DNA of 64,000 bases from Eledone cirrhosa (GCA_964016885.1 OZ024740.1:72230001-72294000), one strand, 5' to 3'. Positions 9,431 to 37,257 are shown, numbered from the stretch's first letter. The notes: generated by a model not told the origin, from the letters alone. Numbers and translations: made by a program.

Positions 9431-10578
9431 AAGAAGAAGAGCGCACTGTACACAATAATTTCATTATTATTTAAGATGATGAGGGTGACGATGATGATAT
9501 CATAGATTTTATAGTAGTACGTAATACCGTTACCACCCACACTTTATTCTATTCTTATTTTTCAATATTGTATATATCTTATTCATTATATAAATTGTAG
9601 ACACCTTTATTGATATATAAATAACGACAAAAAAATGACTGAATAAATTGCAAAAAAAATATTTATTTATTTATTTTGTCAACATAACCGTCACCTGCTC
9701 CTTCAAAAATTTATCTCTGCAAACTATCTTTTAAAGAAAAGTCTACATTCTTAAAAAAGCAATTACAGCGTGTTATGAGAAAACAGAGTCGAATGTATGT
9801 TGCGTATGAGGGGGGGGGGGGGGGTCTCCAAACTGTAATTAGCCCAACGTTCCACCACACAAGTTAATGCTATTAAAGCTTACGTTACATTAATAATTCC
9901 TCTTCTACACTTCCTCACAGAAAATCCTTTTTACCATCCCACTCACTTTTGCTAAATACACTTCTGTGAGTAATATTGTCGTTATGCTATTTTAAACATT
10001 CTTCTTTTATAGTTTTCCTTACTAACTTAAAACCGTTTATCTCTCTTTAATACAGCCGCTCCCTCATTTGTTAAATAGTTCACGTCATCTACCGCTCCTA
10101 CACGGGTCTTCCTTCAACCAAAGGAGTTATCTTCTGTCTTTAATACTTCCTGATATCAAGCCTACATATATACACAAACGATGTTTTTTCTATTTATTTA
10201 AAAACAACTTTTTTAAATCATGTACTTAAAACACAATTTATATAAGGAATATGGTTTACAAAGGAAACAAATTAATAGAAATTATTCAGAGAAAAAAGAG
10301 ATGCACACTCAACTACACACTACAACAGGGAATACTGGTGTTTCCTTCTAAAAATGTTTGAGGCAACGGATGAAGCATTTCTGAATGGGGGGGGGGGGGG
10401 CAAATTTGGTCCATTTAGTTGAAGTGATTAGTTTAGCTGTTATCAAATATCAACCAAGATATAAAAAAAAACTTTGATATGCGATAAACACAGCATGTAC
10501 ATAAATTGTAGTGCATATACAAATAGATGTGTTTTGGTAATTTGTGAAGAAAAATATAATGGTGTTATATAAAAGTTT

Positions 10579-10916
10579 GGCACTACAACGCTATTAGCTG
10601 TCAGTCCAGTGGAAAACAGGCGAAGGTGACGTCACTCGTCAACATCGTTTATTTCCGTATTACTACCACGCGTAAGTGAAGTTTTCACGCGTTTTGTTAA
10701 GAGATAGGGAAGAGAGAGAGAGGGAAGACTTAAAAGGACCAAATAGAAAACAAGTCATGGTTATAAAGCATATCGATGTAAGTGGAGTTACTTAAATGAA
10801 AATGTAGGTGGCCCTTAAAAAAGGGCCAAATTAGAAAACGAGTCATTCATAAATTTAAGTTTTATAATCAAATTTTTTTCACCAACAAATATGACAGCTA
10901 ATAGCGTTGTAGTGCC
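10579..10916 (+). mobile_element. Merlin-like MITE with perfect 25-bp TIRs
   Basis: GGCACTACAACGCTATTAGCTGTCA at 10579-10603 and its exact reverse complement at 10892-10916; its own two flanks do not match. Confidence 0.8.
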
Positions 10917-10951
10917 CGCAATTCTGTATCTTTACGTATATTGCGCATAGA

Positions 10952-11230
10952 TACGAGGGTTGACAAAGATACTCTCATGGAATGTGACCAAATGAGGTTT
11001 ATTTTTCAACATAGTCTCCCTTGCGTTCCACACACTTCTTCCATCGGTGTTGCAGTACTGAGATCAATGTTTTCCTCGGTAGTGGCAGTTGTAGGACGTC
11101 CAGACATTGAGTCATCTTCAAGAATCCCCTATCCTTTCCTAAATTCGGCTGCCCACTTTTGCACAAAGGAAAATTGTGGTACAATATTGTAAGGTCTGCT
11201 TATAGCATTATCCATCTTTCAAAAATGAAG
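10952..11230 (-). mobile_element. Internally deleted mariner transposon remnant
   Basis: N-terminal WAAEFRKG..LEDD..SGRPTTATTEENI joined to C-terminal HRWKKCVERKGDYVEK*; TA followed by cgaggg terminus. Confidence 0.8.
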
Positions 11231-11884
11231 GTCCACATTTCGTCGACTTCAATACATTTGATTACATTTTATTGTATTGTAAACATTAACTTTTATGGAA
11301 ATGTTATTACAAAATTTCAATTTAGTTCGATTTTTTGGAATTTATTTAACAAACATGGAAAAATAAAATAAAAAATAATTTGATTGCCTTTAATAAAGAA
11401 GATAAATAGAGTGGAACTGATTTCCAGGTCATACTAATGAAACAAGGTTTTTTCCATTACTGATATCTGTCTGCCGCAAGTCCTGGTAGAAGATGCTACA
11501 CGAACTAAAGTATTTTACTGAAGGACGCAACATGCTGCAGGATCGAAGAAACGAGCCCATGACTTTATAATGGTTAGTCCAGTACCGTAACCCCTAAGGC
11601 ATGTGCCTTCACAGAGGAAAGGTAAATCATATTATAACAGATTAGATGGGTACTATGTTAGATATTACTATGTGTCATATTATACCAAAGAGGAAGTGTG
11701 CTGTATAATAAACATTGATATCAGGTTGATTCAATAACTACCCGGTCCCAAATATGAACTTATGGTCGTCAGTCAAACACTTTAACCATTGTATGTATGT
11801 ATGTATACACGGATGGATGTATGTGTGTATACATGTATGGATGGATGGATGGTTGTATATATGTAAGTATGTATGCGTGTATGA

Positions 11885-36002: not shown

Positions 36003-36890
36003 TATATATATATATATATACATACATACATATATATACAATATATTAATAAATGGAAACTGATATTATTTACCATTTTCTTATCTTTTGCTTTTACTGC
36101 TTCTTCTTTTCTCTTGCGTTTGTTGGCACTTGCGCTATTCCCTGGAGAAAAATGGCGCCAAACTTTTCCTTTTGAAAGAATATGATTTGTCACGTGATTG
36201 CGTTCACGTGATATTACCTCTAAATATGTGAATGCGTATATACACCACACATATATATATATATATATATATATATATATATATATATACGCAGAAACAC
36301 ACACATACAATAACGACGAGTACTACGATTCTGGGAAGATGAAGCTCTCTGCCGCAGAATAAATGGTATTTAATTTTAATAATAATACTAATAATATATA
36401 TATATATAAATATTTCTTAATTGAATTGGTTATCATTATCGTTGTTATGGCAAAAGATAGACAGAGGGGGAAAGAGATAGACAGAGGGAAATATTTTGAC
36501 ATATATATATATGATAGAAAGAAGAGAGAAAAACGAGACCCTTAGAAACGAATAAGAGTCATCAAAGCGATCATATGTATTGCTTTAAACTGTAATGCGA
36601 AGGGATACACTAGTATTTGAGGTACCATCATTTTGGATTTTAACCCTCGGACTTTTCCCTCCCGGTTTTGAAATTTAGGGAAAATTTAGGGGTGACTGGG
36701 AATATTACATAATGTAGGGATTTTCTTTTCCTTTTCTATCATTTCTTATTTATGTATTTATATATTTATTTATCTACTCTCGTGATTGATATTCCGACAA
36801 ATGTTGGGGTGTATTTTGGTTTTTTATTATGTCAGGTATAGCATCCAAAAATTTCTCCCTTCCCTCAATATATATATATTTATATATACA

Positions 36891-36974
36891 AACACAGTGT
36901 CCCAAAAATGTATACACACTTCAACAGCAAAGTAATCAAAGTGTGTATATATTTTGGAGGGGACACCGTGTGTA
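36891..36974. mobile_element. ~80-bp Tc1/mariner-like mini-MITE (hairpin)
   Basis: acacagtgtcccaaaaatgtatacacactt ... aagtgtgtatatattttggagggacaccgtgt. Confidence 0.6.
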
Positions 36975-37032
36975 TATATATATATATGTGTGTGTATGTG
37001 TAACTAGTAAAACTGTAAAAACGCAGCGGTAT

Positions 37033-37247
37033 ATTCTAATTTTCCCCTTTTAAGAGCCACCTATATTTTCATTTAAGTAACTCCACTTACATATATATGC
37101 TTTAATAAAAACAAAAAATAAAAAACGCGTGAAAAAAATTTTTTTTTCATTTAAGTAACTCCACTTACGCGTGGTAGTAATACGGAAATAAACGATGTTT
37201 TGTTTTCATCGGCTGCTTCGACTGACAGCTAATAGCGTTGTAGTGCC
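37033..37247 (-). mobile_element. Second Merlin-like MITE copy, inverted, inner end missing
   Basis: TIR at 37223-37247; reverse-complement similarity to 10579-10835; followed by AAAAGTTT. Confidence 0.8.
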
Positions 37248-37257
37248 AAAAGTTTTA

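Follow-up and report, generated by a model that had tools for sequence, protein, structure and literature searches.

A Giant Merlin-Type Element of Eledone cirrhosa Belongs to a Dispersed Family of Likely Composite Origin

Introduction

Bacterial composite transposons such as Tn10 and Tn5 are built of inverted terminal modules around a cargo, and one of the modules may supply the transposase. An element of comparable architecture was proposed by a first-pass annotation of a 64,000-bp stretch of the Eledone cirrhosa genome (G000:C1:72230001-72294000; hereafter the window, to whose positions the coordinates below refer), in which a segment of 26.7 kb (10579-37247) is bounded by ends like those of the Merlin superfamily of DNA transposons. 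In the portion of the source used here, Merlin elements are recognized by terminal inverted repeats (TIRs) of 24-462 bp starting with 5'-GG and by target-site duplications (TSDs) of 8 or 9 bp (PMC8101967). Recent Merlins of Octopus vulgaris amount to 11 insertions with a total of 28,998 bp, and the words "composite," "nested," and "segmental" have no occurrence in the available text of that repeat annotation (PMC13282606).

Transposition efficiency is stated to drop with the distance between TIRs, which disfavors large inserts unless they are selected, in a review on giant transposons of eukaryotes whose main text does not contain the word "Merlin" (PMC6431247); the same word is absent from the main text of a study of Pack-TIRs (PMC8277862). 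Composite or macrotransposon behavior comparable to that considered here is treated also in the available portion of PMC1562414. No giant Merlin was found in the literature searched, which excluded subscription papers, supplements, Repbase, and Dfam. In this work, we estimate with a probability of roughly 0.85 that the window contains one copy, itself without a transposase, of a family of giant Merlin elements (median ~26 kb) dispersed through the genome, likely moved by the transposase of sister copies and likely born as a composite.

A Dispersed Family of Giant Elements

Exact copies of the 25-bp TIR of the window element number 385 in the 3.0 Gb of genome searched. Among the first 100 listed, many form plus/minus pairs 22-48 kb apart, several of them with the same three-TIR layout as the window; read by eye, these 100 comprise 18 giants with a TSD versus 7-8 short elements (0.5-3 kb), a tally that leaves many singleton TIRs unassigned. 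The junctions between terminal modules and interior distinguish two subtypes, A and B, the window copy being of subtype B. We found 73 exact and 4 variant left-B junctions, 77 exact right-B junctions and 39 exact right-A junctions. Left-A junctions marked 24 loci among the matches listed, a count that leaves out those in a satellite of contig C19 (see below), 18 unlisted matches and 3 of 27 loci that are not giant copies. After merging within 70 kb, at least 154 loci have one or more exact diagnostic junctions, with 114 falling on the four largest contigs, and some of the 154 are partial copies. For 33 of the 77 left-B junctions, a correctly oriented right-B junction lies within 70 kb, at distances of 3.3-56.7 kb (median 26.5 kb), where ~0.1 would be expected by chance. 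Giant Merlin-type elements thus form a family spread through the genome, of which the window element is one copy.

The DNA between the ends is also common to the family. When 22 copies were compared, 94% of the window element was found in at least one of them, 85% in at least 5 and 77% in at least 10. The cargo is collinear among copies, and what is private to the window copy is only 15784-17263 plus 139 bp; other copies have their own retroelement insertions and internal deletions. In contigs from public sequencing runs, the inner junction has a depth of 643-722 versus 3-7 for the unique left flank, and although contig depth is not copy number and the sample is possibly the assembly's own, the two agree qualitatively. 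A contig from run X5, labeled as another organism, is identical to window 10579-10670 over 92 bases at a depth of 2.4, which may reflect contamination or a related organism in which the family is present.

Target-Site Duplications

The window element is flanked on the plus strand by AAAAGTTT at 10571-10578 and again at 37248-37255, which the first-pass annotation had read as an 8-bp TSD. Besides the window copy, 22 candidate copies were fetched, 3 of which had no far end within the 20-30 kb fetched. Among the 20 two-ended copies of this first set, window included, with spans of 17.2-40.0 kb, TSDs were perfect in 17 (one of them in an (AT)n tract and therefore uninformative) and had one mismatch in 3. 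The TSD sequence differs at each copy, and the exact duplication extends no further than 8 bp in 16 of the 20 and reaches 12 bp in one, the (AT)n site. Because about half of these copies had been picked after their flanks were seen, a blind test was run on 20 further pairs selected on coordinates only. Both TIRs were present in 17, of which 6 had a perfect TSD, 4 one mismatch, 2 two mismatches, 1 a duplication shifted by one base, and 4 unmatched flanks. Overall, 23 of the 37 two-ended copies have perfect 8-bp TSDs and 7 have one mismatch, whereas non-cognate control pairings gave perfect matches in 0 of 272 and matches within one mismatch in 3 of 272. The proposed 8-bp TSD is therefore well supported, and the collinear cargo, together with a TSD proper to each copy, bears out the further proposal that the whole 26.7 kb moved as one unit.

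A preference for certain targets was considered as the source of the matching flanks and rejected. Across all fetched loci, flanks of outer ends show a weak palindromic A/T bias, roughly AAAWWTTT, and 116 of 123 are distinct; AAAAGTTT or its reverse complement occurs at 2 of 123 outer ends and within one mismatch at 5 of 123. Target choice is thus only weakly biased, and AAAAGTTT-like flanks at most family members, which the first-pass annotation had named as evidence that would speak against its proposal, are not what is observed. A hand estimate from position frequencies puts the probability of flanks matching as they do in the window at ~1 in 1000, and the AAAAGTTT duplication exceeds chance.

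Two further observations concern the position of copies. At C2:160784391 and C2:160948416, TIRs on the same strand lie 164 kb apart with 8-bp flanks that are reverse complements of each other, suggesting an inversion through a giant copy. Neighboring copies of subtypes A and B, separated by no more than a few kb at C2:321.54-321.59 Mb and at C4:318.35-318.39 Mb (L263-L266), suggest local hopping.

Subtypes and Transposase

All 9 subtype-A copies contain a DDE_Tnp_IS1595 transposase within the leftmost 1.8 kb, oriented towards the left TIR, and none of the 14 subtype-B copies does, window copy included; the left end of B is a miniature inverted-repeat transposable element (MITE). The family transposase matches PF12762 with E-values of 5e-18 and 7e-19, and its acidic triad (D, D, E) is conserved and aligned with that of other Merlins of this genome. 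One frame of 302 aa is open from its ATG (L152:8207-9115) and most copies are broken. The Merlin identity first suggested by the ends is thus borne out by a transposase in sister copies with the same TIR, the window copy itself having none. At least 40 close matches of the transposase gene were found, many of them near a cargo marker. Among named proteins, ISXO2-like transposases of Octopus bimaculoides and O. sinensis come nearest, with 62-85% identity. An N-terminal Cys-x2-Cys...Cys-x3-Cys motif in the open frame resembles the IS1595 zinc ribbon, with a PF12760 (Zn_ribbon_IS1595) score of 13.7 bits (E 0.061) that lies below the 25.4 cut-off.

With 150 of 447 candidates scored for PF12762, the 30 best loci belong mostly to other Merlin families with different TIRs, and 2 of the 30 carry the TIR of the window. 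Other Merlin families of this genome, with different GG-starting TIRs and 8-bp TSDs, are seen at L051, L063, L068, and L069. Short transposase-bearing elements of the family of the window element were seen as well: one of 2.2 kb with an 8-bp TSD (L098, C1:326314040-326316223), and one of 3 kb with two left-type ends, inverted transposase parts and an 8-bp TSD (L082, C1:45539941-45542990).

The left module of subtype A, which ends in a palindrome with a truncated TIR, meets the core near window 17300. On the right, the usual end of A is a ~170-bp foldback whose inner TIR is truncated, and it joins near 36235. Subtype B reaches ~5 kb further to the left and ~1 kb further to the right than A and has no trace of A modules. 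Since B extends past both joins without such traces, B first is the simpler order, and we somewhat favor an origin of subtype A from the longer B by new ends inserted inside it. One of five segments clustered by subtype (2 changes; 0-1 of 500 shuffles as low), without starred support.

Structure of the Window Copy

Three exact TIR matches occur in the window, where 0 are expected from 100 shuffles: the GG-starting left outer TIR (10579-10603, plus strand), an inner TIR (10892-10916, minus strand), and the right outer TIR (37223-37247, minus strand). The first-pass coordinates for TIRs and flanks were all exact, and the right module does lack an inner TIR. A subterminal motif lies at 10647-10678 on the plus strand and, in reverse complement, at 37162-37193.

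The first ~260 bp of the MITE-like left module of subtype B (10579-10916, plus strand) recur in the left end that carries the transposase in subtype A. The inner TIR that closes the B module has no subterminal motif and, here as almost always, is followed by CGCAAT(TC); we denote as CGCAATTC the flank directly after the inner TIR of the window copy. A left arm specific to subtype B follows (10917-15783, plus strand), with the relic of a reverse transcriptase of a long interspersed nuclear element (LINE) inside (RVT_1, 12645-14066). Next comes the copy-specific LINE insertion on the minus strand (15784-17263; RVT_1 and PHD), missing at the collinear position in 22 of 22 other copies. The core common to both subtypes (17290-36235, plus strand) contains degenerate tandem repeats of 159 bp and ~890 bp, LINE relics, GTGTG-type arrays, low-complexity arrays with 12-, 18-, and 24-bp periods at about 25000-28700 and a GIY-YIG fragment at 32634-32942. 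The right arm of subtype B (36236-37033, plus strand) lies past the endpoint of most A copies, and the right end module (37034-37247, minus strand), with TIR and subterminal motif, has its cargo junction in 77 exact copies.

Transposon Ends and a Possible Mechanism

The subterminal motif was present within ~115 bp of the TIR in 117 of 123 outer-type ends and in 0 of 27 inner-type ends. The flanks of the inner ends were identical in 23 of 27 cases and near-identical in 3, the remaining one being internal to another element. No inner-type TIR with a base other than T at the sixth flank position was found among the exact matches, and an inner TIR was never seen as a free end. Such a distribution suggests that the motif is likely needed for a working end.

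We propose that short Merlin elements came to flank ~20-25 kb of old, repeat-rich DNA, and that this founder composite would have been cut and pasted as a single unit by Merlin transposase from sister copies. If the transposase pairs only ends having both TIR and subterminal motif, inner ends without the motif (B left) or truncated (A left and A right) would leave only the far ends to pair, so that the cargo would be locked in and could be lost only through internal deletion. TIR transposons gain copies through gap repair and through cut-and-paste while the DNA is being replicated, and it is likely by these routes that copy number rose here in one burst; since then, individual copies have acquired retroelement insertions of their own and lost internal stretches. 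Merlin ends were also found inserted in their own subterminal regions (L073, L256, and L258) and beside existing copies, which may be a route to new end combinations.

Cargo and Age

Mean pairwise p-distances among copies are 0.023-0.032 in five segments, and 0.024 for the subtype-B left arm among 13 B copies. The segment trees are star-like, with end branches of ~0.010-0.016 and one starred node in total, which points to one amplification burst. On the scale given for octopus in the available part of the source, a distance of 0.09 corresponds to 25 Myr (PMC13282606), and the burst would on that scale date very roughly to 3-4 Myr ago. The cargo is older than the burst, as its ~890-bp tandem units are only ~70-85% alike internally.

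The first-pass annotation had also seen a possible exon relic in the cargo, and no gene could be confirmed. Pfam searches on 53 open reading frames (ORFs) of the window (at least 75 aa, with very low-complexity ORFs removed by an entropy filter) returned only RVT_1, PHD/C1, GIY-YIG, and one weak match below threshold, with no host-gene domain among them. The long repetitive ORF at 25170-25784 had no Pfam match, and an Rfam search gave 0 matches. In 9 other copies, ORFs of at least 230 aa look by inspection retroelement-, Merlin-, or repeat-derived.

Origin of the Family

That a composite formed only once, at the window locus, fits the local anatomy and was the proposal from which we started. 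It is refuted as a single event, with a probability close to nil, and can stand only as an account of how the family founder arose: the family occupies more than 100 loci, the inner junction has 73 exact copies and the right junction 77, and collinear cargo occurs on other chromosomes with other TSDs. The inner TIR and its CGCAATTC flank, exact in 73 copies, were therefore inherited rather than assembled at this site. It is also very improbable that Merlin ends were merely carried along in a block dispersed by segmental duplication or ectopic recombination, since homology ends at the TIRs, the 8-bp duplication is a different one at each two-ended copy and 116 of 123 outer flanks are distinct. 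Such a process does find support in the common flanks of some copies on C211 and C5 and in a 375-bp copy of the window's left junction on C4 (C4:124128627-124129001; L174, L199). This last sequence, a 99% match made up of ~170 bp of flank, the TSD, the TIR, and ~175 bp of MITE, has no other end within 40 kb and is likely a templated insertion. As for C211 (150-638 kb) and C5 (12.47-13.03 Mb), each has four subtype-B left junctions ~160-215 kb apart, and the two checked per set have common flanks, indicating copies inside large tandem duplications.

Selection for a useful cargo, whether an exon of a repetitive protein or genes resembling those of viruses, such as Polintons and Teratorn have, could explain the size of the element. 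The arrays at 25000-28700 do look codon-like, with periods that are multiples of 6 and stretches of 200-290 aa rich in Asn, Ala, Asp, and Thr. Their frames are nonetheless broken differently in each copy, none being conserved across copies, and several copies have lost part of the region; with no polymerase B, integrase, capsid, or host-gene family found by Pfam in the 53 window ORFs and no Rfam match, we regard this explanation as improbable. A slow nested growth, in which one Merlin accumulated retroelements and repeats between its own TIRs and then amplified without any two-element step, deserves more weight and seems to us unlikely. It would account for a cargo composed mostly of relics of transposable elements (TEs) and repeats, for the insertion of Merlin ends in their own subterminal regions, and for the failure to find a donor, and internal tandem repeats are described as frequent in Merlin families (PMC8101967, in the part available). 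Yet internal duplicates of the cargo are 15-30% diverged while the ends are near-identical to those of short elements, and dead inner TIRs or TIR remnants stand at three module-cargo junctions, as if short elements had flanked foreign DNA. Nested growth, one of the two routes offered by the first-pass annotation, does explain ~1.6 kb at the window site; the remainder is unexplained by insertion there. A composite origin of the family founder is thus the reading that we infer as likely.

Several results weigh against a likely composite-born, sister-mobilized family or complicate it. Some loci, four on C211 and four on C5, are segmental duplicates and not transpositions. In the blind set, flanks were unrelated in 4 of 17 pairs and perfect TSDs in only 6 of 17 fall below the prediction from ~1.3% decay; some of these loci are rearranged or mispaired. 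That the transposase is active and that the subterminal motif has a role at the ends are both predictions from sequence, and among transposase copies pN/pS is ~1.03 (15 synonymous and 59 nonsynonymous changes), as would be expected of neutral decay after insertion. Mosaics run both ways, with a B left and an A right end in E1 and E2 and an A left end with a B-type right arm in E19, and the trees leave the order of A and B undecided.

The donor copy anticipated by the first-pass annotation, with a TIR flanked by CGCAATTC, was searched genome-wide and gave 0 junction matches, the 4 variant left-B junctions being mutated element copies. A cluster on C19, considered as donor, was rejected when it proved to be a 54-bp satellite. 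No parental copy of the cargo was found among the best 40 DNA matches scored. A missing donor is expected if the founder excised, which is not proof, and the cargo may have been captured in one step or acquired by slow growth. Paralogous flanks revealed no empty site; both flanks adjoin other repeats, the right one starting 5 bp past the TSD and the left one stopping ~18 bp before it, and with repeats adjoining the TSDs within about 5-18 bp, such a search is uninformative. An empty allele was also sought by comparing the left junction with contigs of four runs, three of them from one sample that is possibly the assembly's own, and no join to the right flank was seen among the rows listed (763 further rows exist).

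The C19 Satellite and Other Repeats

The A-junction motif also matches contig C19, where a satellite fills about 6 Mb (about 33.6-39.6 Mb). All 14 samples taken within this interval (among L163-L170 and L205-L210) are pure 54-bp satellite. Outside it, 5 samples at 31.0-33.5 Mb are non-satellite and 3 at 39.9-40.2 Mb consist of a different short repeat, which reaches the contig end and which we take to be telomere-like. The satellite has 95% unit matches and 186 units per 10 kb, with a strand switch near 39.1-39.2 Mb. Its 54-bp unit is made of 27-bp and 18-bp exact matches to the A module and contains 13 bp of the TIR, suggesting that it likely derived from the transposon.

Outside the element, the window contains a long terminal repeat (LTR) retrotransposon at 55076-59179, with 218-bp LTRs 99% alike and frames for protease, reverse transcriptase, and integrase; its family also has an insertion within the left module of copy E1 (L031). 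Other repeats here are a 522-bp tandem repeat that terminates in a 214-bp palindrome (47255-48630) and young minisatellites of 40 bp (59861-61263) and 53 bp (61657-62213).

Implications

Tentatively, and with a little more doubt than confidence, we may see here a natural macrotransposon, in which a ~300-aa transposase burst-amplified ~26 kb of junk DNA to more than 100 loci, giants outnumber short forms because all inner ends are disabled, and the ends seeded the ~6-Mb subtelomeric satellite. If so, several megabases of the genome were spread in one recent burst, and a satellite with on the order of 100,000 TIR half-sites could be a transposase sink or a chromosome-structural element, linking the end of a DNA transposon with a megabase satellite. 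A 26-kb element without evident useful cargo at more than 100 loci suggests that a composite can become a stable, amplifying animal family. Families of this kind could pass as segmental duplications or be split into LINE and satellite pieces by standard annotation, distorting TE age landscapes, and their giant members would move other TEs and satellites in blocks. The family also supplies an open transposase frame and a candidate end rule (TIR plus subterminal motif), which makes the biochemistry of Merlin and its capacity for large cargo accessible to direct test.

Comparison with Known Systems

As far as the sources were available, the family agrees with the Merlin superfamily (IS1016/IS1595-like) in its 25-bp GG-starting TIR, 8-bp TSD, DDE_Tnp_IS1595 transposase of ~300 aa, and internal tandem repeats. 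It differs in size, since described families are of a few kb, one of them of 2.57 kb (PMC8101967), whereas most resolved two-ended copies here are 12-48 kb and include foreign DNA. The Zn_Tnp_IS1595 domain is said to be absent from described families, whereas here a four-Cys motif reaches a sub-threshold score.

Captured DNA in multiple copies is also known from Pack-MULEs and Pack-TIRs, in which TIR elements with captured genomic DNA multiply through repeated transposition. In the available part of that study, however, the median capture is 224 bp and copies are few (PMC8277862), whereas the cargo described here is ~100-fold longer and no parent locus was found for it. Teratorn and Polintons/Mavericks are likewise large elements with TIRs, and Teratorn also has internal TIRs (PMC6431247, in the portion available), but those are its preferred ends, whereas internal TIRs were not seen used in the window family. 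Moreover, no virus-like genes (polymerase B, integrase, capsid, or herpesvirus genes) were found among the 53 window ORFs. KolobokP, likewise large and with TIRs, is composite-like with long direct repeats in the part of its description available (PMC9587614), whereas the window family has no long terminal direct repeats. From all of these the family differs in its transposase superfamily.

With bacterial composite transposons, the family shares outer ends that moved together with the intervening DNA, with one TSD around the whole. It does not have two complete, similar, and separately mobile flanking elements, as the right module is without an inner TIR and the left inner TIR is without the motif. 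The label "Tn10-like" given by the first-pass annotation is therefore loose: its two terminal modules differ, no inner end seems to be mobile, and under a strict definition of Tn10 the element falls outside. Unlike in Tn10 and Tn5, inner ends are either absent or dead, and the cargo offers no selectable gene. The maize Ac/fAc macrotransposons (PMC9910405) and the foldback-bounded "TE" composites of Drosophila (PMC6431247) share with this family, in the portions of those sources available, the movement of tens of kb of intervening DNA by the ends of separate elements, the maize examples spanning 10-28 kb with an 8-bp TSD. Those cases are few events in genetic stocks, whereas here we find a natural family at more than 100 loci with a transposase-bearing subtype.

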